Below, one piece after another: positions 48,498 to 61,734 of a stretch of 64,000 nt of DNA. Source of the stretch: Thermoproteota archaeon (lineage in GTDB: Archaea; Asgardarchaeota; Jordiarchaeia; Jordiarchaeales; Freyrarchaeaceae); NCBI GenBank assembly GCA_029258835.1, contig JAPDJY010000030.1:32001-96000 (forward strand), read 5' to 3'. How positions within the stretch are numbered: position 1 is the stretch's first letter; every line of letters begins with the position of its first letter. A program made the position numbers and the translations under genes. A model generated the notes under the pieces. It was not told the origin of the DNA. It searched no databases and saw only the letters and a list, made by a program, of their open reading frames with translations.

Positions 48498-49751
48498 ATG
48501 GGTAAGCTGGCTAGAGGTGTAGCGATTATAGGTGCCGGGATGAGCAAGTTTGGAGCCTTTAAGGATAAGACGACGAGGGAGCTTTTCGTAGAGGCCTTCC
48601 TAGAAGCCAAAAACAGCGTGGACAATGGGATAGATGTTAAGGACATTGAAGCCTTATTCCTCGGAAACTTCTCGAATGACATATTCGAGGGCCAAGTCCA
48701 CACTGGACCACTAATGGCAAACATGGTAGGAATAACGCCTGCTCCGGCAATGAAGATAGAGGATGCATGTGCAAGCAGCGGGGTCGCACTGCGCCTCGGC
48801 ATACTAGCGATCGCCTCGGGGGTGCATGACATAGTATGTGTTGGTGGAGTGGAGAAGATGACCAACCTCGAAACAGCCAGGGTAACCGACGTCCTCGCAT
48901 CCGCAGCCGACGCGTTCTACGAGTTCCCAGCAGGGGCAACTTTTCCCGGGCTATACGCGGAAATGGCCAATGCACACATGAAAAGGTATGGTACGACCAT
49001 TGAGCAGTTAAGGCTGGTGGGAATCAAAAATCATGAAAATGGCGCTTTAAACCCTAAAGCCCAGTTTCAAGCGTCCATAAGAGACATCATGAAGTCGAGG
49101 ATGGAGAAAGCTAAGGCTAAAGGCTTGCCTGTGCCGACGTGGAAGGACGAAATGGAGTTCCTAGAGGACCCTGCGGCAAACCCCATCATAGCGTGGCCCC
49201 TCAGGCTGTTTGATTGTAGCCCGATAACAGACGGAGCGGCAGTGGTGATTTTGGCAGCGGAAGAAATTGCGAGAAAGTTCACCGACACGCCGATATATGT
49301 GGCTGGAACGGGTCAGGGCAGCGACGCCCTCGCCCTCCATGATAGAGAAGATTTAACCTCCCTCAGGGCTGCTAGGGTCGCGGCGAGGGAGGCGTACCGC
49401 ATGGCTGGTGTAGAACCAAAGGACATTCAGCTAGCGGAGGTGCACGACTGCTTCACGATAGCTGAAATAGTCGCGACAGAAGACCTTGGCTTCTTCAAGC
49501 CCGGGGAAGGCGGGAAGGCGGTTGAGGAAGGCGTTACTAAAAGAGACGGCGAGAAGCCGATAAATACTTCAGGAGGGCTAAAGGCTAAAGGGCATCCCGT
49601 AGGAGCAAGCGGGGCGGCGCAGGTCGTTGAAATATGGCATCAGCTAAGGGGCTCAGCAGGACCAAGACAAGTTTCCGGAGTCGAACTTGCTCTAACCCAT
49701 AACGTTGGAGGGTCAGGGGCTAGCTGCGCCGTCCACATCTTCAGGAGGTGA
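48498..49751 (+). CDS. Thiolase (archaeal/SCP2-like acetyl-CoA acetyltransferase)
   Basis: EDACASS, GVEKM, DCSPITDGAA, EVHDCF, GGLKAKGHPVGASG, HNVGG. Confidence 0.95.
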   Translation: MGKLARGVAIIGAGMSKFGAFKDKTTRELFVEAFLEAKNSVDNGIDVKDIEALFLGNFSNDIFEGQVHTGPLMANMVGITPAPAMKIEDACASSGVALRLGILAIASGVHDIVCVGGVEKMTNLETARVTDVLASAADAFYEFPAGATFPGLYAEMANAHMKRYGTTIEQLRLVGIKNHENGALNPKAQFQASIRDIMKSRMEKAKAKGLPVPTWKDEMEFLEDPAANPIIAWPLRLFDCSPITDGAAVVILAAEEIARKFTDTPIYVAGTGQGSDALALHDREDLTSLRAARVAAREAYRMAGVEPKDIQLAEVHDCFTIAEIVATEDLGFFKPGEGGKAVEEGVTKRDGEKPINTSGGLKAKGHPVGASGAAQVVEIWHQLRGSAGPRQVSGVELALTHNVGGSGASCAVHIFRR

Positions 49752-49757
49752 AAATCT

Positions 49758-50162
49758 ATGAGTTCCTCCGGCTTCACCGTTAAAGCGTTTAAAGATTTCC
49801 TGAAAGAGAGGAAACTTATGGGTGCTAAGTGCAGGAGCTGCGGGATGGTTAATTTCCCTCCTCGCCCATTATGTAAGAGTTGTCATGGAAGCGAGCTCGA
49901 ATGGGTGGAACTGGAAGGCAAAGGCACATTGGTAACGTTCTCGGTTGTATATGTGGCTCCAACACCACTAGTTGCCGAAGGATACGGGCGAGATAACCCT
50001 TACGTGTTCGGCGTAGTGGACCTTGGACAGGGGGCGAAGGTAACAGCGCGGATAGTTGAAGTAGACGCCAAGAAGCCGGAAACTATAAAGATAGGAATGA
50101 ACATGGAAGCCGTTTTCATAGAAAGGAACGGGGAAACCGTTCTGGCTTTTAAACCAGCCTAA
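49758..50162 (+). CDS. DUF35 Zn-ribbon/OB-fold thiolase partner
   Basis: CRSCG...PP...C..C, PY..G.V.L. Confidence 0.92.
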   Translation: MSSSGFTVKAFKDFLKERKLMGAKCRSCGMVNFPPRPLCKSCHGSELEWVELEGKGTLVTFSVVYVAPTPLVAEGYGRDNPYVFGVVDLGQGAKVTARIVEVDAKKPETIKIGMNMEAVFIERNGETVLAFKPA

Positions 50163-50235
50163 CGCCACCCTTCTTTCCTTATTTATTATTTACTGCCTTA
50201 CAGCTCCTCCATCGAAAAGAAAAAAGGAGAGTTGG

Positions 50236-50676
50236 TTAGTAGAGGACGCGGTCGGCTACGAGAAGAGCTGCCTCTCCCTCGACGCACACTTCCCCCCTCT
50301 GATTCTTGATTTCATATTTGAACCTGACAACTCCTCCTGGATATTTTGACGTTGGCTTTTTCTCGACTACCTCTCCCTCCGTGTGAATAGTATCCCCTAC
50401 TTTTACGGGTGCTAAAAACTTGTATCTCGCCTCTAGGAATGCTATAGCCGTGCCTGCAACAAGCATTCCCATAAACCCTGACATGAGCGTTATGGTTAGA
50501 AGTCCATGCGCTATTCTTGCTCCGAAGGGTGTTTTCTTCGCGAATTCGTCGTTTACGTGGAGTGGGTTGAAGTCTCCTGAGAGCCCTGCAAAAAGCGTGA
50601 TGTGTGCGTCTGTCACCGTTATCGCTGGCGAGACGAACTTTTCCCCTACTTCAAACTCGTTGAATGTTTTAGGCAT
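50236..50676 (-). CDS. MaoC-family (R)-enoyl-CoA hydratase
   Basis: FA.LSGDFNPLH, IAHG, F.APV..GDT. Confidence 0.93.
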   Translation of the reverse strand: MPKTFNEFEVGEKFVSPAITVTDAHITLFAGLSGDFNPLHVNDEFAKKTPFGARIAHGLLTITLMSGFMGMLVAGTAIAFLEARYKFLAPVKVGDTIHTEGEVVEKKPTSKYPGGVVRFKYEIKNQRGEVCVEGEAALLVADRVLY

Positions 50677-52085: not shown

Positions 52086-53042
52086 ATGGAGGGGGTTAAG
52101 TTAAAGGTTGCAGAGTATGTTATGCAATGTGCCATTCTCGCCATACTGCTCGAGGTTAGCGGCTACCCTAAGCCGGGTAACGTCCACCGTGTCCGCGACA
52201 GCCCCGAAACAAGGTTTGAGCACTTCTTGGCCGGCGCCGTCGCCATCGGACCCGCTATGGGCAAACTTGCCGAAAACGGCTTCAAGGCAGAAACGGGGGA
52301 AATAAGTTTAAGGGATATTTCGGTGGGCCGCTTCATCCTCGAAGCAGTGGACGCTACTGCTAAATGGCAGAGGGGGGGTAACACGAACCTTGGAACAGTT
52401 CTCCTGTTCTCACCCTTGTCTGCTGCCGCTGGTATGTGCATCGCCTCCTCTGGCGGCGTGTCCGTTGACGAGCTTAGAGGAAACGTTGTGAAGGTTATAG
52501 ATGGCACTACGGTTGACGATGCCGTAAAGGTTTATGATGCCATTCAGCTCGCTAAACCAGGAGGAATGGGGAAGGTAAGCGTGCTTGACGTGAACGACCC
52601 GGAGTCGAAGAGGAAGATCGCCTCGGCCGGCCTCACCTTGAAGGACGTCTTCGCCGTCAGCGCAGGGTGGGATGGGATTAGTGAGGAATGGGTTAACGGT
52701 ATGAGGACTGTTTTTACCATAGGATACCCTGCATTCAAGAAGCATTATGCCGCCACCGGAGACGTGAACGTGGCTACGGTGAACACTTTCCTAACGATTC
52801 TCTCAGAAAAGCCGGATACGTTAATAGCTAGGAAGGCTGGAGCCGATGCGGCACGTTACGTAAGCTCCAAGGCGGAGGCTATTTTGAATGCAGGAGGAAT
52901 CGAGACACCCGGCGGAAGAAGGCTTTGCTGGATGCTAGACGAAGAACTTCATAAAGCGAAGGGAAAGCTCAATCCGGGAACCACCGCAGACCTGACAGCT
53001 GCATCGATCTTCGTCTGCCTGCTGGAGGGCCTCCGGTACTAG
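52086..53042 (+). CDS. citG: CitG-family triphosphoribosyl transferase (archaeal type)
   Basis: LEV...PKPGNV, NTNLG, DTLI.RK.G, NPGTTADL. Confidence 0.92.
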   Translation: MEGVKLKVAEYVMQCAILAILLEVSGYPKPGNVHRVRDSPETRFEHFLAGAVAIGPAMGKLAENGFKAETGEISLRDISVGRFILEAVDATAKWQRGGNTNLGTVLLFSPLSAAAGMCIASSGGVSVDELRGNVVKVIDGTTVDDAVKVYDAIQLAKPGGMGKVSVLDVNDPESKRKIASAGLTLKDVFAVSAGWDGISEEWVNGMRTVFTIGYPAFKKHYAATGDVNVATVNTFLTILSEKPDTLIARKAGADAARYVSSKAEAILNAGGIETPGGRRLCWMLDEELHKAKGKLNPGTTADLTAASIFVCLLEGLRY

Positions 53043-53136
53043 CGTTACACCCCTACTAGGGCTTATTCTATTCCTCGTTGAAGCAGAAAACTTTTCAACC
53101 GTCGCTTACGCTTTTTTATATAAGTAGCGTCTAAGG

Positions 53137-54189
53137 ATGATAATGATGCCCCTAGGTGTTTTTGTAATCCGCTTCTCCGCTAACGCTGTTTCCTTGGAAA
53201 GCTCCTTCCTCCACGACTCCGCGCTGTCAGAAGACGTCCTCGTCTCCTTCTTCTCTAACTACGATCTCAGAGTGGGAAAGGTTGAACGCGTCGAGGTGGA
53301 CCATGAAGAAGTTCTTTTCGGTGTTGTGGGTAAGGGTGAAAGCCTTCTTCTGCTAGGGGTGATCTTAGAGAGCGAGTTGGAGGAGGCCTTCTTTAAACGT
53401 TACGTGTTGGATGAGGCAGCGTTCTTACTGGAACAGTCAGGCGGAAACCTTTTCCTACTTCTAGCTGAAAGCTATAGTAACATGTTAACTAGGGTTTCCC
53501 ACGACGTGGAACGGCATTTGTCGGAGGCTGAGAACCGTGAGCTTTCCATAGGCGACCAGCAGAAAAAAATCGAGTCCGTGCTGGAGTCAAAGTACGATGA
53601 GGAGTTAAAAGTTGCAGAAGAGCTGGAGGTGCTAAAGGAAGGCGAAGACCCTGAGAGCCTCTTCAGGAGGCTTGAAAGCCTTTTCGGCGAAGAAAAAGAG
53701 TTGGAGGAAAAGCTGAAGAACATAGTGGAAGAAAAGGAGCGAGCCCATGAAGAAGCCTCCTCGCTGCAAGCTACACTTAACAAGCTGGGTGAAGTGCTCT
53801 CCCAGCTTCAAACAGTGCTCCTTCAAGCTAGAGCTGCTATGGTAGAGGCCAAACAAGAGGAAAAGGTTGAAGAGGAGTTTTACACGGTGTTTGACGTGCT
53901 TAAGAGCAAGTATGGGGAAGAGAATGCGGTCATATTGGAGTACTTGTACATTATAAGAACTCCTCAGAGCCTTGACGAAATAGTTAACCATCTTAACATG
54001 GATCCTAACACGTTAAGGGAAAAGTTAAAGGAGCTTGTAGCAAGAGGGTACGTGTGCACACTTAGAAAGAAAAAAGCTGAAGATCTTTTCTACACTGTTT
54101 GCCCTTCATGCCCCCTTAACACTAAGTGCATGAAGGAGAGGAAGATGAACTGGGCTGAAATTCTTTCGATGGTGAAAGTTGAAGGCTGA
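53137..54189 (+). CDS. Hypothetical protein: alpha/beta N-domain, coiled coil, winged helix, Cys cluster
   Basis: E-rich coil about aa 120-245; ILEYL..SLDEI..L...L..LV.RGYV; CPSCPL..C. Confidence 0.65.
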   Translation: MIMMPLGVFVIRFSANAVSLESSFLHDSALSEDVLVSFFSNYDLRVGKVERVEVDHEEVLFGVVGKGESLLLLGVILESELEEAFFKRYVLDEAAFLLEQSGGNLFLLLAESYSNMLTRVSHDVERHLSEAENRELSIGDQQKKIESVLESKYDEELKVAEELEVLKEGEDPESLFRRLESLFGEEKELEEKLKNIVEEKERAHEEASSLQATLNKLGEVLSQLQTVLLQARAAMVEAKQEEKVEEEFYTVFDVLKSKYGEENAVILEYLYIIRTPQSLDEIVNHLNMDPNTLREKLKELVARGYVCTLRKKKAEDLFYTVCPSCPLNTKCMKERKMNWAEILSMVKVEG

Positions 54190-55318
54190 AGCAGGATGGG
54201 GTCGTTTGTCGAAGGTTCTCAGGAGAAGAGCCCTCTGCCTAGGCTTGGTTAAAGAGCTGACTTTAAGGCAAGGCACGTTCACCATCCAGGACGTGGTGAA
54301 CGAAACAGGTCTCCCTAGGACCACGGTGCAGGACTGGATTCACCGCCTCGTAGATGAAGGGTTCATTAGAATAATCGAGGAATCTGTTGGACGTAAACCC
54401 GCCAGGTACGCTTACGTTAGAGACGAAGCATTCCCCTACTTGGCATGTAAACGTATTTTTACGGCGGTAGACTTAGACGCAGGCATAGCGGAAATCTACC
54501 ATGAATGTAGCAGTGAAGGCGCAGTTATATTCTGCGCGTTCGAGCACTTTAAGGCTAAAGGGGCGATAATAGAAGCTAGGTATGAGGGAAAATTCCTTAG
54601 AGAGCTAACCATCCTTGGAAGAGAGAGAGAAGTTGCTTCGGGGGCTTCGATGGCTGTAGAGCGGGTGGACGTGGTAGGCGACAAGGTTATTCAAAAGATT
54701 AGGGCTGTCGGCGGACCCGCACACTCACTGACCGAAACCATGAGGTTCGCTCGAGGGCTGAGGGAGCTTAAAGTTAAGCCCATGCAGGGGTATGTTGAGG
54801 GCATCGTTGTCACGGACATGCTCGAGCACGTCACTATAGGCGTAGATGACACCGACAGTCCCGACTCAGGGGCAACCTGGGCGTTAACCTTAGCTTTGCT
54901 TAACAGCCTTAAGGGGCTAGTCGAGGAGATAAGCCATAAGGTTGTCCACTTGAACCCCAATGTGAAGTATAAAACCGTTGGTAACGCTGCAAGCTTCATA
55001 GAGGTTGCGGTAGCACCCAACAAGCTTAATGCATTAATCAGCCACTCGGTGAACTTTCTAGAGAAAGAAACCTACTCGGATAACACGGCTGTAGCGTTTC
55101 TGAAGGGCTTAACGATTCCTGATCCGCTCAAGTCCTTCGCTAACAGGGCGCGACGCATGGAAGTCACGGTGAGCGAGGCTGAAAGGGTAGCTAAGAAGGC
55201 TGGTGTCAGCGTTTACGAGGTTACTGGAAGAAGAGGGATGATAGGGGCTGTAGCTAGCCTAGCCTTCTTTAGAGCTCCTCCCGAAGTCCTTGTGAACTCG
55301 GAAGCCCTCCTGGCCTAA
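54179..55318 (+). CDS. HTH fused to methanogenesis-marker-11/TiaS-like domain
   Basis: FT..DV...GLPRTTVQDW..RL HTH; GVDDTD...GATW, L.P.V..KT..N, G.IGA.A. Confidence 0.75.
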   Translation: MKAEAGWGRLSKVLRRRALCLGLVKELTLRQGTFTIQDVVNETGLPRTTVQDWIHRLVDEGFIRIIEESVGRKPARYAYVRDEAFPYLACKRIFTAVDLDAGIAEIYHECSSEGAVIFCAFEHFKAKGAIIEARYEGKFLRELTILGREREVASGASMAVERVDVVGDKVIQKIRAVGGPAHSLTETMRFARGLRELKVKPMQGYVEGIVVTDMLEHVTIGVDDTDSPDSGATWALTLALLNSLKGLVEEISHKVVHLNPNVKYKTVGNAASFIEVAVAPNKLNALISHSVNFLEKETYSDNTAVAFLKGLTIPDPLKSFANRARRMEVTVSEAERVAKKAGVSVYEVTGRRGMIGAVASLAFFRAPPEVLVNSEALLA

Positions 55319-55320
55319 GA

Positions 55321-55992
55321 CTAGCTTCTTTCAACCCTCCTTACCCTCCTCCGCTTATACTTCGTTCTCAGCTTTTTCTCTTTCTCTCTAATTAGTGCTG
55401 GGCTTACAGCTCTCTTCTTCTCCATTTTCAGGTATTCTCTCAGCCATTCCACGTCCGGGTAGTCTGGAGGCTTCTCCGGCAAGGTTTTCCCGCAGTTGGG
55501 ACACACGGTATTGCCAAAGAGAACTTTTCCGCAGCTCGGGCAGAAGCCATGCCTCAACAGGTTCTGCCTCGTCTTACGGGTTCCAAGTACGTCTATCACC
55601 GCGAAAGCTACGAACCCGCCCATCGCCGCGAAGGCCATGTAAACCATTTCTATCGGCGTTCTCCCCTGAGTGTACCATTGATAGAATATGAAGAATGAAA
55701 GGTTTGGCGCCATGACCATCTGAAGAATGGGAGGGTACTGCGTCTGAAGCCCATTCATAACTATCGCGACGCTTGCCGCAAAGCCTGCTATGTAAAGGGC
55801 TAGCATCCTCTTTATACCCGTCCTCTTAGAGAGCTCTTCATGGGTTAGACATTCTATACATCGTTCCCCGACGAGGCCCTTCACTTTTTCAAGGCATATG
55901 TTGCAAAAGGGTCGTCCGCACTTTACACATCTACCGGTTGCAGCGTACATCGGATGGAACGTACAACTCTGCACCTGCTTCTTTTCCGGCAT
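55321..55992 (-). CDS. Membrane protein with B-box-like Zn finger and double Zn ribbon
   Basis: C.FHP..A...C..C.RP.C..C...C..C, two TM segments, CPSCG...CPNCG. Confidence 0.7.
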   Translation of the reverse strand: MPEKKQVQSCTFHPMYAATGRCVKCGRPFCNICLEKVKGLVGERCIECLTHEELSKRTGIKRMLALYIAGFAASVAIVMNGLQTQYPPILQMVMAPNLSFFIFYQWYTQGRTPIEMVYMAFAAMGGFVAFAVIDVLGTRKTRQNLLRHGFCPSCGKVLFGNTVCPNCGKTLPEKPPDYPDVEWLREYLKMEKKRAVSPALIREKEKKLRTKYKRRRVRRVERS

Positions 55993-56109
55993 GTCCGTTC
56001 CTCCTTTCCAGCTCTTACAACCTATTAAAAGTTGTTTTTGCCATTTAAAAAGACTTTTTAGCAGTCTACCTCTAATCTCTCCTAAGAGAAAATTGGAGGT
56101 ACAGAACTA

Positions 56110-56421
56110 ATGTGCGAGTTTAGGGTGAAGGTTACGGGTTTAAGCGGCGAGAGGCAAGTTGCAGACGAAATAGTTTATGTTAAAGTAGGAGGAGACGGGG
56201 TAGTCCTAAGGGATATTCTCGGATCAGCCGTGCAGGTAAACTCCGCCATTGTAAGCTACGTTAGCGTGACATCAGAAGAAATACATTTAGTGGAGCATCC
56301 CCTAGTAGGGGCATTCTTAACCTTACTCTCCAAGCTGGAGAATTCGAAAAACAAGGAAGATGTGAAGGCTGCATGGGAATCGTTCGTCAAGGAAGGTGAC
56401 AAAATAATTTCAGAGTGCTAA
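56110..56421 (+). CDS. CooT-family nickel-binding protein with C-terminal extension
   Basis: MCE start, L.DILG motif. Confidence 0.75.
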   Translation: MCEFRVKVTGLSGERQVADEIVYVKVGGDGVVLRDILGSAVQVNSAIVSYVSVTSEEIHLVEHPLVGAFLTLLSKLENSKNKEDVKAAWESFVKEGDKIISEC

Positions 56422-56460
56422 AAGCCAGCACCCTTAAACCTATTAGACATAGAACTTCTC

Positions 56461-57498
56461 TCACGTCGCATCTTCTAAATGTATGTAGTCTCTCGCATTA
56501 GCTTCCTGTGACCCGACCACCACCCGGTAATATTCTTCTCCCCTTCCTTTTACTTTTTCTAGTTTGCCATGCACCCTTACACGCTCCCCCTCCCCAGCTA
56601 TGTCGCAGAAGAGCCCTTCATAGGAGACCACCTCTTTTATCTCTCCAGGACAGTCCCCTTCCAGAATTGTTACGTCTTCGACCTCGTATTTGCATGGTAG
56701 GAAGATCGCGTCCTTACTTGATGAAATTGTTGCTTTGATAGTGCACATACCTACCTTTCGGAAAACCCTGTCTCCGTATTTCTCATCTATTTCTTCGTCG
56801 ATCCTTACAGGATGTATTGAAAACCTCGTCCCCCTATAGAAACCTATGTTCCATTTCCTTTCAAGAATTTTCCGTGCCTGCTTCTTGGAAAGCTGGAACA
56901 CTCCCTCCTTCTTTCTAACCCACTCTTCAGCCGCCCTTCCCGTGAACGTCTTAACATCCCTTCCTCTAAGGGAAAGGATAGCCTCCTTAACCCTTACCGC
57001 GTACCTTCTTCCATAAACTGTTAAGTCAACGTCGGAGAACGAGGGATTATGGATGTCTATTAGAATGGACCCGGTCACTCCGAACCTCCGCAGGGGGACC
57101 CCGCTTTCACGTGAGAGAAGTGAAATCAGGGATAAAGCCTTCTCCTGAAGCGGGTCAACTCTCTTCTCCTCTAAAAGCTTCGCAACTTTCACCTCAGGGT
57201 AGTATCGGGACTCGATCTCGCTTCCGGGAACCGCCGAGAAAACTATCCCGTAAACATCCGAGTAGTACAAGTACTTCGGGTATTTTCTCAGGAATTTGAA
57301 GGTGTCTGCTACTGCGGCGGCATCATATCTTGAGAGTATCCTGTGAAACTTTCCTCTTTTCCCCCACCGGCCAGCACTGCTTGGAACATATTTCAAGTAA
57401 GCCAAGACTCTCCCTGGTGGGTGGGCGTAACCTACAACACAGAAGAAAAAGTTTTCACGTGTTCTCAGAAAGTCCCTGTCACGTTCCATTCTAACCAA
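56461..57498 (-). CDS. Pol-beta-superfamily nucleotidyltransferase (COG1665-like), paralogue 2
   Basis: F.V.G..HPP.RV.AYLKY, GVTGS...SDVDL.VYG, F.P..Y, GE...V.G.LE. Confidence 0.85.
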   Translation of the reverse strand: MVRMERDRDFLRTRENFFFCVVGYAHPPGRVLAYLKYVPSSAGRWGKRGKFHRILSRYDAAAVADTFKFLRKYPKYLYYSDVYGIVFSAVPGSEIESRYYPEVKVAKLLEEKRVDPLQEKALSLISLLSRESGVPLRRFGVTGSILIDIHNPSFSDVDLTVYGRRYAVRVKEAILSLRGRDVKTFTGRAAEEWVRKKEGVFQLSKKQARKILERKWNIGFYRGTRFSIHPVRIDEEIDEKYGDRVFRKVGMCTIKATISSSKDAIFLPCKYEVEDVTILEGDCPGEIKEVVSYEGLFCDIAGEGERVRVHGKLEKVKGRGEEYYRVVVGSQEANARDYIHLEDAT

Positions 57499-57513
57499 GG
57501 TGAACCACCTAAA

Positions 57514-58515
57514 TCACCACTTAACTATTAAGAAATCCTCTCGTCTCCCCCCCACAACAAGCCTAAACCACTCTTCACCCTCAGACTTCACCCTTTCAAC
57601 CTTCCCCCTTGCCATAACTTTTTCCCCCTCCCTTGCTTGGTCGCTGAAGCGCCCCCTGAAAGAGACAACCTCCCTTACAGGAAACCTCGCTCCCTCCAGA
57701 ACCTTCACGTCATCCAAAATGTAACTGCAAGGCGTGAAAATTGCATCTGAGGCATCCGCCACCACCCCTTCAACTAGAGCATAGCCTACATGCCTGTACA
57801 ATCTCTCCCCGTAAACTTCACCGTACTCGTCAGGGTACTTCACAAAGCGAAGAAAGAAGTCGCAGCTTTTAACCACCCCTGACATATACTTCCTCCTCTC
57901 ACACCTGGCAAAGTCCTCGTACCCTATCAAAGTATCCTTAGACCTGAACTCGTAGAGCCTTCTCAATTCCTCCTCACCATAAACTCGTATGTCTCCTTCA
58001 CTGCAAACCAGGTTCTTCATCGCCTCGTAGGCCCTCCAACAGTTTCTCTTTCCAAAGACGACGATGTCCACGTCTGAACTCGGCCTCTCCATGCTTACAA
58101 GTAGAGATCCCGAGACTCCAATGCTGCCTATAGGAACCCCCGCCTCCTCCGCTATCCTCGTGGACAAGAAGGCTGCCGCCTCCTCCAGCCTGCTCCTCTC
58201 CCCTCTTACGAGAAGCCGTGAAAGCCTTTCACGTGGATCGTAGACCTTAGCTATGTCGCCCTTCGGGACACCCTCAACCTCCATTCCGAAGACGTGGTCA
58301 AAGTACAGGTAGTCCGGCTTCCTATTCCTAAGTATTCTTTCCCTTTCCTCGAGAGAATACACCTTGCGGAACCTCACCCCCCCTCTCTCACGTTCACCCC
58401 TAGGATCCGGAAAATACCGCAGGTACGCTATAACCCTGTCTGGAGGGTGAACAACCCCCTTCACGTCAAATATGAATCCTTCAATGGTCTCTAGGAAGAA
58501 TCCCTCTATTATCAA
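57514..58515 (-). CDS. Pol-beta-superfamily nucleotidyltransferase (COG1665-like), paralogue 1
   Basis: FDVKG..HPP.RV.AYLRY, GVSGS...SDVDI.VFG, FTP..Y, GE....GK.E. Confidence 0.85.
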   Translation of the reverse strand: MIIEGFFLETIEGFIFDVKGVVHPPDRVIAYLRYFPDPRGERERGGVRFRKVYSLEERERILRNRKPDYLYFDHVFGMEVEGVPKGDIAKVYDPRERLSRLLVRGERSRLEEAAAFLSTRIAEEAGVPIGSIGVSGSLLVSMERPSSDVDIVVFGKRNCWRAYEAMKNLVCSEGDIRVYGEEELRRLYEFRSKDTLIGYEDFARCERRKYMSGVVKSCDFFLRFVKYPDEYGEVYGERLYRHVGYALVEGVVADASDAIFTPCSYILDDVKVLEGARFPVREVVSFRGRFSDQAREGEKVMARGKVERVKSEGEEWFRLVVGGRREDFLIVKW

Positions 58516-59463
58516 CTAATCACCGCTGGATGCAAGCTCTCTCTTCAACTCCTTCACGGTAGCTTTCCTATATGCCACCGTGTTGTAGGAGTGAACTGAC
58601 TCCATGCTTTCCACCCTGACCTCCACTATGGATTCGTCTGGAAGCCACTTCAGCCTTCGCAGAGTATTAAAAATTATCAGTCGTGCAACATCCTCGACAA
58701 AAAGGGGGTTTAAATGTGCTAGGCGGATAAGTCGCGCCTCCTCATGCCTCTTAAGAACATCCTGTATACTTCCACTCATCGAACTTTCTACAACCTCAAC
58801 CAGATCCGTTAAGTCTATGCCTCCATTCCCAACCTCGACTATTAAGGTGCCCCGGCAGCGCTGACTATGAGAGGCAAGTGGAACCACGTCAAGTATTTTA
58901 CCTATGACCTCCTTGCTAAGTGAAAGCTCTTCAGCTCTCTTGGCGAGTATTGCCTCAGCGTAGCTTCTCACCATTTCCTGAGCGCATGGGCAAGCCGTCA
59001 TGCCATCCACGCTAACACCTACGAAAACTCTAGCTTCAATTTCTTCGCCCCTCTTGGCTTCGCCTCTAACGTGTAGCCTACACGCCTTCTGTCTTTTAAC
59101 CTCCTCTTCCCCCGCTCTAACATCCAATATCAGCGGACTTTCAAATACGACGACAGCTCTATCAGAGTATTCATGTTTTTCAAGAAGACGCTCCAGCAGC
59201 TTTCTGCAGAGCTCCTCGACGCCCTCAACAGGCTTATACGCTACGTCCTCTACAATGCTCTCTATCGTTTCGCTGCTCCTTGACATGTGCACCCCCCTCT
59301 GCTCCCTAGGCAAGTTTATGTACGCGGAAAACTCGGGTATGAGCGTCGTCTCTTTTCCATCCCTAACTACTTTAACCTTCTTGACGAGTCCTGAAACTCC
59401 GACCATGTCAAGTGCTACAGGTATCTGGGCGCGCTCGCCTTGAACGTCTGGGAGGTCACTCAT
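58516..59463 (-). CDS. mptA: GTP cyclohydrolase IV (MptA/FolE2 family)
   Basis: LPDVQ, RGVHMSR, MTACPCAQ, HSQR, LKR..E, FVED..R, ESVH. Confidence 0.95.
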   Translation of the reverse strand: MSDLPDVQGERAQIPVALDMVGVSGLVKKVKVVRDGKETTLIPEFSAYINLPREQRGVHMSRSSETIESIVEDVAYKPVEGVEELCRKLLERLLEKHEYSDRAVVVFESPLILDVRAGEEEVKRQKACRLHVRGEAKRGEEIEARVFVGVSVDGMTACPCAQEMVRSYAEAILAKRAEELSLSKEVIGKILDVVPLASHSQRCRGTLIVEVGNGGIDLTDLVEVVESSMSGSIQDVLKRHEEARLIRLAHLNPLFVEDVARLIIFNTLRRLKWLPDESIVEVRVESMESVHSYNTVAYRKATVKELKRELASSGD

Positions 59464-61006
59464 AGTCACCACCAAACACGTCTGCATCCTGAACATAGCT
59501 TTTACCTAGCTTAAGGCAGCATTCAGCTTTCCCAAGCTCCCTGCCAAGGTAAACGGCATGTTCAAGGGACCCAACTAACCCCTCTGAGAGAATAGTTTTC
59601 CCTAAGTGTTCAGCGTTTTCCCCGACGAAAAGCCTTTCGCCCCCGCCCCCCCTATGCAGAACGAAAATTCTACCAGTGTCATGGTTAACCCATATGGTGA
59701 AGTAGCCTAATGGGTCGGGCGTGTACTCCTTTCTTTCTCTCTCAAACACGGCTTCGACTCCCTCGACGTTTGGCGCCTCGAAGAACTCCCTCTTACTCTT
59801 CGCCCTAAGCAAACTTACCCCTAAATCCTTTGGAGGAGAGGAAAGGGCCTTGGCTATCGCAGCCATCCTCCTCGCGGTAGCAACCTCCCTCACGCTCCCC
59901 CTGGTCTTAACGCTGTTCTCCGTTGTAAGAATTAATGGAGCACCAACCTCCTGGGCAATGATCGCCAACATTGCGTTAATGCCAACGCTGTCAGCGTCTA
60001 CAAACTCGGATACGTTCCCGGCTCCAAACATGAGAGGGGTCTCCCTGTCCAAGTCTCTGAAGATGAGGTAAGACCTGAGAGATCTCGTGAACCCGGGATT
60101 TATCGGCGGCTCGAGCAGTAGGTCAGCTATGATCCTCCTAAACCCCTTCCTCCTAGCTTTCTCAACGATCCTAAACGCTTTCTCCGCTCTTCCCTCAGGG
60201 TCTCCAGGCAAGTCTCCCGTCCTAACGTTGGTTGGTAGGAGAACTACAGCCACGTCCATGGGGATTTTCACCTCGTCTATGTTCCCGTAGTCCAAGCTGA
60301 GAACCATGTCCGCTCCGGCCTCCACAGCGGCCTCGATCTCCGACGGGTTTAAGCTGTCAACGCTGACAGGAACCTTAAACCTTTCGCGGATCTCGTAAAC
60401 TAGCTCAGCTATTCTTTGAGCGTTGTCTTCTCCCACCACCGCTCCAATATCGATCATGTCCGCACCCGATTTCAAATAGTATTCCGCTCTGGACAGAACC
60501 CTGTCCGTAGGCAACGTCGGAGCATCCACCACCTCAGCCAGAATCCTCACTACGCCGTCCAGTCCAACGTAAACTCCTTTCACACCATCCCTACCAACGG
60601 TAAAGCCAACCCTTGCTTCCTTCCCCTCCTCATATCCCTCAATCTCCCTCCACAGCATAGCCCTCTCCCTTGCAACAATCACGTCAAGCGGCTCCTCCTT
60701 AGATAACTCCTCCAGTTTTTCAAAGACTAATGGAATGTCACATGCATACCTTGAACCCTTGAAGACAGGCACTCCCAAGGCCTTCTCTATAGGCTTGGTG
60801 CTTCCTCTCATCAATCCTGGCACGATTATCATGTCATACTTCTTTCTCGCGACAGCTCCTCTGAGCTCCTCAACTACCATTTGCGGCGTGATGAGGGCTG
60901 CAACGGAGACAGGGAGGCATGCCACGTCAACTTCAGCCTCCACATCGCCAGCGTACTTTCTGACTAATGGCTCGGCAAGCCTCCCTGTAACCAGCAGAAC
61001 CCTCAA
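59456..61006 (-). CDS. Dihydropteroate-synthase-like protein (MJ0107/Orf20 family, DUF4346-type C-terminus)
   Basis: LLVTG.LA, AEVVDA, GAD.IDIG, SVDS, G.GNV.E..DADS.G.NA, DP.GYF, HA.YLG.EL.KA; TTG start overlapping the dmrX stop. Confidence 0.9.
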   Translation of the reverse strand: MRVLLVTGRLAEPLVRKYAGDVEAEVDVACLPVSVAALITPQMVVEELRGAVARKKYDMIIVPGLMRGSTKPIEKALGVPVFKGSRYACDIPLVFEKLEELSKEEPLDVIVARERAMLWREIEGYEEGKEARVGFTVGRDGVKGVYVGLDGVVRILAEVVDAPTLPTDRVLSRAEYYLKSGADMIDIGAVVGEDNAQRIAELVYEIRERFKVPVSVDSLNPSEIEAAVEAGADMVLSLDYGNIDEVKIPMDVAVVLLPTNVRTGDLPGDPEGRAEKAFRIVEKARRKGFRRIIADLLLEPPINPGFTRSLRSYLIFRDLDRETPLMFGAGNVSEFVDADSVGINAMLAIIAQEVGAPLILTTENSVKTRGSVREVATARRMAAIAKALSSPPKDLGVSLLRAKSKREFFEAPNVEGVEAVFERERKEYTPDPLGYFTIWVNHDTGRIFVLHRGGGGERLFVGENAEHLGKTILSEGLVGSLEHAVYLGRELGKAECCLKLGKSYVQDADVFGGDYE

Positions 61007-61734
61007 ATGCTGAGAACCTCCTTCATGCAAGGTATTATTTCCTCAGGCCTTTTTAAAACACGGACTCCTTCAAAACCCGTAAGCCTCCTCACGTTTTCAG
61101 CGTCCACCCTCCTCACAATAGCCTTAACCTTCCTCCCGAACGTTACCGCTCCATAAGGACACTCTCCCACGCAAACCTTACACCCATTACACCTGAGAAG
61201 GTTCACCGAAGGTTTCCCGTCAACTCTCACAATCGCGTTCTCAGGACATCTCTCCTCCGGGGGGCAAGGCGTGCATCCCAAGCACATTTCCCTATCAACA
61301 ACTATGGGTAGCGTAGTCACGACTTCCCCCTCACTATAATCCGTTGGAACAATTAGGACTGGAACCCTGCTTTTCACCGCCTGGGCAAAGGCAGCAGTTA
61401 CCAGCGTGTCACATATTCCAAGGGCCATCTTTGCCACCGTATTTGAGGAAGCGGGTGATATGATGAAAACGCTATATCTGCCTGACGCGAACCTTCCAGC
61501 CTTAGGGAAGCTAAATCCCTCCTCCCTCTCGAGAAATATTTCTTGGTAGTATCCTCCAGGGGCAACCTTCCTCAGCCTTCTGAAGACACCATACATTTTA
61601 GCTACCTCCTCCCCAGCTCTTGAAAGGTACACCGTGACGGCTACGTCTAACTCCTTTTTCATCCTCAAGAAAACCTCTAGAGTCTCCTCCATGAAGTGTC
61701 CTGCACCGGTTATCCCCCATGCAACATTAAACAC
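61003..61734 (-). CDS. dmrX: Dihydromethanopterin reductase (AfpA-type flavoprotein with two 4Fe-4S motifs)
   Basis: AWGITGAG, SPA..NTVAK...GI.DTL, C..C..C.....CP and C..C..C...CP. Confidence 0.9.
   Translation of the reverse strand: MFNVAWGITGAGHFMEETLEVFLRMKKELDVAVTVYLSRAGEEVAKMYGVFRRLRKVAPGGYYQEIFLEREEGFSFPKAGRFASGRYSVFIISPASSNTVAKMALGICDTLVTAAFAQAVKSRVPVLIVPTDYSEGEVVTTLPIVVDREMCLGCTPCPPEERCPENAIVRVDGKPSVNLLRCNGCKVCVGECPYGAVTFGRKVKAIVRRVDAENVRRLTGFEGVRVLKRPEEIIPCMKEVLSI

Follow-up and report, generated by a model that had tools for sequence, protein, structure and literature searches.

A CitG-family gene and Pol-beta-type nucleotidyltransferases as candidate enzymes for the tail of methanopterin-type cofactors

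The closest described systems are two enzyme pairs, CitG with CitX and MdcB with MdcG. CitG/MdcB is a triphosphoribosyl-dephospho-CoA synthase (EC 2.4.2.52), to which ATP gives the triphosphoribosyl group. In the reaction of MdcG/CitX, a hydroxyl then displaces pyrophosphate from that group, the acceptor being a serine of an apo-acyl-carrier protein. Here we describe a CitG-family gene and a pair of nucleotidyltransferases (NTases) of the Pol-beta type that lie at a methanopterin biosynthesis operon in an archaeon placed among the Asgardarchaeota. Comparison with related loci assigns its genome to the Jordarchaeales. They are found in a stretch of 64,000 nucleotides of contig JAPDJY010000030.1 (assembly GCA_029258835.1, positions 32,001 to 96,000), which is called the window below.

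Methanogens, anaerobic methane oxidisers, many other archaea and methylotrophs use methanopterin as their central one-carbon carrier. Its tail has an alpha-ribosyl linkage and a ribose-phosphate-hydroxyglutarate end, and we know of no genes assigned to the enzymes that add this tail. Methylotrophs make dephospho-tetrahydromethanopterin, a form that has no phosphate-hydroxyglutarate end and so differs from the product proposed here. The original prediction for this locus had pointed to a CitG homologue, Orf7, in methylotroph clusters for tetrahydromethanopterin (H4MPT). Two papers taken together agree with this: in the methanotroph mch-orf5-orf7-fae cluster, the place of orf7 is taken by a gene with the annotation triphosphoribosyl-dephospho-CoA synthase (PMC3615186, PMC11533326). 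Some of the loci surveyed below resemble that arrangement in that a CitG-family gene adjoins mch. To our knowledge, no activity has been demonstrated for Orf7. Our literature searches found no paper tying methanopterin to CitG or to the NTase family described below, and none that assigns an enzyme to the tail steps.

The locus

The genes of main interest are the following.

52086..53042, plus strand: CitG-family gene (triphosphoribosyl transferase-like), 318 residues, PF01874
56461..57498, minus strand: NTase-B (clade B), 345 residues, paralogue of NTase-A, motifs GVTGS...SDVD
57514..58515, minus strand: NTase-A (clade A), 333 residues, motifs GVSGS...SDVD
58516..59496, minus strand: mptA (GTP cyclohydrolase MptA), TIGR00294, 292 bits, above cut-off
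59456..61030, minus strand: mptH, dihydropteroate synthase-like (DUF6513, pterin-binding and PterinBD-DUF4346 domains), TIGR00284, 367 bits, and Pfam domains
61003..61734, minus strand: dmrX (dihydromethanopterin reductase, flavoprotein with 4Fe-4S), TIGR02700, 292 bits
61727..62830, minus strand: DUF1464 (ASKHA-fold) protein, PF07318, 337 bits
62839..63834, minus strand: mptG (beta-ribofuranosylaminobenzene 5'-phosphate synthase), NF040726, 378 bits, above cut-off

The minus-strand operon thus reads mptG, DUF1464, dmrX, mptH, mptA, NTase-A, NTase-B. It had been predicted that two Pol-beta-type NTases close the operon, with the first of them abutting mptA. The open reading frames, the motifs and the start and stop positions all agree with this: the TAG stop of mptA occupies 58516-58518, and the TTG start of NTase-A follows directly at 58515, with no gap. 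The CitG-family gene, predicted to be 3.4 kb away, lies 3419 bp from NTase-B.

The CitG-family gene matches PF01874 with 269 bits (cut-off 27; E 5.9e-80) over positions 2-283 of the 284 in the profile. It scores well below the equivalog cut-offs for CitG/MdcB, with 80 against 280 bits for NF002315, 75 against 282 for TIGR03132 and 57 against 272 for TIGR03125. Judged by these profiles, the gene is a member of the CitG family and not a CitG/MdcB equivalog. Among solved structures it is closest to 3h9p (E 1.7e-15), which is a putative triphosphoribosyl-dephospho-CoA synthase. The absence of a citrate lyase or malonate decarboxylase system, noted earlier for the window, extends to the genome (94.7% complete), in which the profiles for the CitD/MdcC-type acyl-carrier protein, CitX, MdcG and MdcG_N (PF06857, PF03802, PF10620 and PF20866) have no match above cut-off. 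The locus differs from MdcB/MdcG and CitG/CitX, in that neither the carrier protein nor the lyase or decarboxylase is found, and the context is instead methanopterin biosynthesis and the one-carbon enzymes that depend on H4MPT.

Genomic partners and phyletic distribution

The proteins of the window were mapped onto 80 loci found with a profile of the NTase family, and all the open reading frames of these loci were clustered. The NTase is present in 79 of them. CitG occurs in 50 of the 79, within 3 kb of the NTase in 45 and within 150 bp in 22. This genomic partnership with a CitG-family gene, together with their co-occurrence in 58 genomes of Thermoproteota, is a point of likeness to MdcG/CitX. 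An H4MPT-dependent one-carbon enzyme (Mch, Ftr, Mer-like or FwdABCD) is found in 27/79 loci and methanopterin biosynthesis genes in 12/79, and at least one gene of either kind is found in 39/79. In the bacterial class introduced below, and in two Asgard families (f15 and f26), CitG adjoins mch.

Loci from Jordarchaeia, Freyarchaeia and Baldrarchaeia share the operon order of the window. Some Bathyarchaeia have mptH-mptG-DUF1464-dmrX-DUF447-citG-NTase. The commonest layout in Bathyarchaeia has citG-fwdDBAC-mch on one strand, divergent from a membrane-protein gene and NTase-A, and continues with NTase-D, NTase-C, a winged-helix regulator and MobB. In Baldrarchaeia and Thermofilaceae the NTases are flanked by Ftr and a Mer-like gene. 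In the same two groups, a CofE-like gene (F420-0:gamma-glutamyl ligase family) and Ftr come after the NTase pair (L061:13017-13916, L044, L025, L071), and the CofE-like gene could encode a glutamyl ligase for the tail.

A membrane protein resembling the S-component of energy-coupling factor (ECF) transporters adjoins NTase-A in 34 of the 79 loci, where it is directly upstream (for example L063:9040-9864 and L054:2904-4100). The assignment relies on weak matches to PF07155 and PF12822. In the genome of the window itself no homologue of this protein was found.

Five Sulfolobaceae genomes (G314, G306, G290, G243, G235) have an overlapping operon DUF1464-NTase-CitG-metallophosphoesterase (L092:77-3167 in G314). 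The NTase here is a very distant member of the family (69 bits). It overlaps CitG, which is adjacent in 5/5 genomes. Named relatives of this NTase come from Sulfolobus acidocaldarius, Acidianus, Metallosphaera and Sulfurisphaera. The DUF1464 family is common to the head of this operon and to the mpt operon of the window.

A bacterial protein of 505 residues (P0150) consists of HPPK, the pterin pyrophosphokinase (PF01288, E 3e-40), joined to this NTase. The fusion is called in three assemblies, one of them from NCBI and the others two independent run assemblies (L089:5626-9086, L090, L091), and is followed downstream by a DmrX/AfpA-like flavoprotein and then an MptH-like gene. In the same genome Mch, MptG and CitG lie near one another on a single contig (C6). 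In three genomes of the bacterial class the NTase match falls in open frames that are 517 to 569 residues long, and these fit the same fusion. The fusion therefore ties the NTase family to pterin cofactor synthesis, independently of the neighbourhood counts.

Phylogenetic profiling had been proposed as a check, and was carried out on 201 Asgard genomes, 151 genomes of Thermoproteota and 137 genomes of one bacterial class. Among the Asgard genomes, 135 have the NTase, 134 have Mch, 159 have CitG and 81 have a TIGR00144-type MptG above cut-off. All 16 of the Asgard families that have the NTase also have Mch; among the 11 families that do not, Mch is present only in f3 and f6. Within Thermoproteota, the NTase occurs in 65/73 genomes with Mch or an MptG-like gene, compared to 3/78 without. 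CitG is found in 63 Thermoproteota genomes, together with the NTase in 58 of them and with Mch or MptG in 61. In the bacterial class the numbers are 19 for the NTase, 22 for MptG, 23 for Mch and 21 for CitG; the NTase is present in 19/22 MptG-positive genomes and in 0/115 MptG-negative genomes. All these genomes stand in one consecutive run within the sample of the class. The occurrence in bacteria is probably due to a single acquisition. The NTase thus tracks Mch or MptG in all three samples, and the failure to co-occur with H4MPT genes that would have spoken against the prediction is not seen. This co-occurrence recurs in three phyla despite the kinship of the genomes.

Four further genes lie between CitG and the NTases in the window.

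53137-54189, plus strand: HTH-like protein
54179-55318, plus strand: winged helix-turn-helix and TiaS-TCKD protein, methanogenesis-marker-11-like (TIGR03280, E 3e-41, below cut-off)
55321-55992, minus strand: zinc-ribbon protein
56110-56421, plus strand: CooT-like protein

The order of this block (53137..56421) is kept in Jordarchaeia and Freyarchaeia (L011, L012, L014, L015, L055), and it could belong to the module as an additional component or regulate it. A TiaS-like tRNA enzyme was considered on account of the nearby TCKD gene and the OB fold of the NTases described below, and was rejected in view of the gene context. Just upstream of the region, the window also has genes for a thiolase, a DUF35/BbsA-like OB/zinc-ribbon protein and a MaoC-type dehydratase (48498-50676).

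Sequence, fold and clades of the nucleotidyltransferases

NTase-A and NTase-B are paralogues (35% identity, E 1e-58). Searches of Pfam, NCBIfam and PDB sequences with the two proteins gave no match above threshold, and no Pfam or NCBIfam model spans the family. With the Pol-beta Pfam profiles (PF01909/PF18765, cut-off 21), NTase-A scores 14.7 and NTase-B 14.5 bits, below the gathering threshold; the C and D paralogues, introduced below, score 21.1 and 20.7 bits. A word-indexed search found 2327 relatives, chiefly from Asgard archaea, Bathyarchaeia and other Thermoproteota, and an exhaustive profile search gave 1531 representatives at 50% identity (E up to 0.001). In their sources they are called 'nucleotidyltransferase domain-containing protein' or 'hypothetical protein' and nothing more specific, and the names sampled for 20 representative clusters come only from Asgard archaea, Bathyarchaeia, Korarchaeota and Vulcanisaeta. 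A search for fused forms among proteins of 637-2000 residues found none, which the tool itself rates as weak evidence.

An AlphaFold (AF2) model of NTase-A, built from 24 input sequences, has a mean pLDDT of 94. It is predicted to consist of an N-terminal beta-rich domain, a Pol-beta nucleotidyltransferase core and a C-terminal OB fold. The superfamily assignment fits the sequence motifs: with hG[GS]...DxD and a third carboxylate placed on the core sheet, the NTases belong, by these features, to the Pol-beta superfamily.

Foldseek found no match to the model in the PDB at E values up to 0.001. VIA-align against the PDB matched the OB fold to single-stranded DNA-binding protein (SSB), MCM N-terminal domains, editosome OB proteins and the anticodon-binding domains of aminoacyl-tRNA synthetases (Z 7-8.8), and the core to Trf4, terminal uridylyltransferases (TUTases) and Pol X (Z about 7.4). 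These matches are generic, with Z-scores in the range that the tool terms common. In a shape search of the ESM Atlas, clusters of the protein itself come first, and the first named family after them is MdcG (PF10620 with MdcG_N), with a TM-score of 0.57 by target and 0.40 by query over 162 residues, which cover the N-terminal domain and core, at a root-mean-square deviation of 3.7. In the comparison with MdcG/CitX called for by the original prediction, MdcG is the nearest named family by shape, and no solved MdcG or CitX appears in the PDB results.

The locus is like the known pairs in joining a CitG-family gene to an NTase of the Pol-beta type with a predicted extra N-terminal domain and the GS and DxD motifs. 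The family nearest to this NTase in shape is the partner of the CitG homologue MdcB. Unlike MdcG/CitX, the NTases have no sequence match to MdcG, MdcG_N or CitX: PF10620, PF20866 and PF03802 are not among the matches of NTase-A and NTase-B even at E up to 10, nor do they match at the NTase genes genome-wide. They also have an added OB fold and four paralogous clades, and their proposed acceptors are small molecules.

The original prediction saw two transferases. Both are present, though they stand for two of the four old clades of the family, all of which occur in the genome of the window. The second tandem pair, of clades C and D, is on another contig (G000:C20:24646-26632, minus strand; L006:10578-12645), downstream of a KTI12/AAA_33-type P-loop kinase. 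Also near this C/D pair are a LarA-like gene and ThiDN. In the 80 other loci no such kinase neighbour was seen.

A tree of 160 sequences, from the 80 named loci and the window's own genome, resolves four monophyletic clades, A (n=78), B (n=39), C (n=21) and D (n=22), with supports of 0.94 to 1.0 (0.94 for A, 0.99 for B). The residues G133, G136, S137, S147, D148 and D150 (G-x-GS and S-DxD) are 100% conserved in all four, and position 230, the third carboxylate, is E or D throughout. Since the GS, DxD and E230 motifs are kept in each clade, all four look catalytically intact. Other charged residues are invariant within single clades. Clade A has the basic residues R33, R223, R287 and R289; clade D has the acidic residues E33, E221, E223, E288 and E289; and the invariant residues peculiar to NTase-B and its clade include H at 223 and E-G at 287-288. 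A predicted complex of NTase-A with NTase-B scored 0.04, which has no bearing either way.

Proposed chemistry and alternatives

What is observed is that these genes have genomic ties to one another and to methanopterin genes, a predicted fold and intact catalytic motifs. On this basis we hypothesise that the CitG-like gene, the NTase-A/B pair and the C/D pair build the sugar-phosphate tail of a methanopterin-type cofactor, by the logic of MdcB with MdcG or CitG with CitX but with a small molecule in place of the carrier protein. In the first step, the CitG-like enzyme would use ATP as ribosyl donor, with adenine as the leaving group, and would place a 5-triphospho-alpha-D-ribosyl group on the terminal ribitol hydroxyl of the pterin-aminophenyl-ribitol intermediate. 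The alpha linkage found in methanopterin would then result from inversion at C1 of ATP. In the second step, the product of the first would serve the MdcG-like NTase as its 'NTP'. The alpha-phosphate would be attacked by a hydroxyl, the one at position 2 of hydroxyglutarate or that of a different alcohol in other lineages, so that pyrophosphate departs and a ribose-5-phosphodiester forms.

The core of the original prediction, that CitG and the NTases act jointly on a methanopterin-type cofactor, is upheld by their adjacency, their co-occurrence in three phyla, the HPPK fusion and the MdcG-like shape. We put the probability that the module serves such a cofactor at about 0.8. The exact chemistry remains a matter of inference, and to the specific sequence of triphosphoribosylation by CitG followed by joining of hydroxyglutarate with loss of pyrophosphate we give even odds.

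Several points weigh against this reading. The substrates, the order of the steps and the roles of the four clades are what we infer. The likeness to MdcG is one of modelled shape only, to which sequence profiles are blind. Four ancient clades with intact motifs are more than a single phosphodiester needs. The scheme from R. H. White's experiments on cell extracts reportedly has phosphoribosyl pyrophosphate (PRPP) for the ribosylation and ATP for the ligation of hydroxyglutarate. The phyletic samples cover Asgard archaea, Thermoproteota and one bacterial class, and the full tail structure is known only from classical methanogens. DUF1464, a frequent third partner, matched Sulfolobus acidocaldarius among the control genomes and not M. 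jannaschii or M. acetivorans.

The phyletic pattern also has its exceptions. The counts overstate independence, because the genomes are related. In the Asgard family f3, Mch is present in 4/4 genomes and CitG in 3/4, with the NTase in 0/4. In f5 and f14, CitG is present and the NTase, Mch and MptG have no match above cut-off; in Asgard archaea CitG alone is more widespread than the methanopterin pathway. A TIGR00144-type MptG is missing from NTase carriers in five Asgard families (f7, f15, f16, f20, f26) and in 24 Thermoproteota, and is likewise missing from 26/38 Mch-positive Thermoproteota. Such carriers may have replaced the first enzyme, may salvage a precursor, or may use Mch on another pterin. 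Mch homologues in haloarchaea have been argued to work with folate (PMC8305020). Since they may be linked to folate in some archaea, Mch is an imperfect marker.

The explanation that survives best beside the proposed scheme is one in which the module belongs to the metabolism of a methanopterin-type cofactor but carries out a different chemistry. The NTases could adenylylate or otherwise activate a phosphate or carboxylate, add head groups specific to a lineage, or act on a precursor salvaged by way of the ECF-type protein, and CitG could ribosylate another hydroxyl. Every genomic tie given above applies equally to this explanation. It would also suit the differences in invariant charged residues among the four clades, the ECF S-component-like protein beside NTase-A in so many loci, and the many genomes that have the module without a canonical MptG. 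The one point against it is that the partnership with CitG and the MdcG-like shape make displacement of pyrophosphate from a triphosphoribosyl group the simplest reading, and we consider a different chemistry rather unlikely, though the most serious of the alternatives.

It is much less probable that CitG and the NTases make a prosthetic group of the phosphoribosyl-dephospho-CoA type for a carrier protein of a one-carbon pathway. Both reference families (CitG/CitX and MdcB/MdcG) do have this canonical role, and the operons are often shared with fwd, mch and ftr, but the genome has no carrier of the CitD/MdcC type, CitX or MdcG that matches above cut-off, and the CitG score is far under the equivalog cut-offs. 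Moreover, the operons that contain the genes are biosynthetic ones, shared with mptA, mptH, mptG and dmrX, and HPPK is joined to one member of the family. We know of no solved structure of Fwd, Ftr or Mch that bears such a group, which also counts against this idea.

Least probable of all, and in our view very improbable, is that the NTases act on RNA or DNA, as in tRNA modification or tailing, and that their cofactor-gene neighbourhood is synteny without shared function: the OB fold is most like those of SSB, MCM, editosome and aminoacyl-tRNA synthetase domains, the core is like Trf4, TUTases and Pol X, and the C/D pair in this genome follows a KTI12/AAA_33-type kinase, but the fold matches have Z-scores in the common range, the kinase neighbour was seen in none of the 80 other loci, the family adjoins CitG and methanopterin genes across three phyla and in bacteria and is nearly absent from genomes without Mch or MptG, and the HPPK fusion speaks for pterins.

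The proposed module, in which CitG and the NTases assemble the tail, supplies named candidate genes for an old gap in the pathway, and a scheme that accounts for the alpha linkage. Two kinds of carrier open a route to testing it, namely the bacteria that have the HPPK fusion and the genetically tractable Sulfolobus acidocaldarius. A bolder version, which we hold to be doubtful, is that the alpha-ribosyl-phosphate tail comes from ATP by way of a CitG-type enzyme and not from PRPP, that the four MdcG-like transferases install different alcohols or act in a fixed series, and that in genomes without MptG the module finishes a precursor imported by the ECF-type protein. If this were true, the radiation of the NTases would explain why modified folates are diverse among archaea. 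If the proposed module does act as we suggest, the gap in the pathway would be closed, and the prosthetic-group chemistry of CitG and MdcG would have been reused for the assembly of a small-molecule cofactor.

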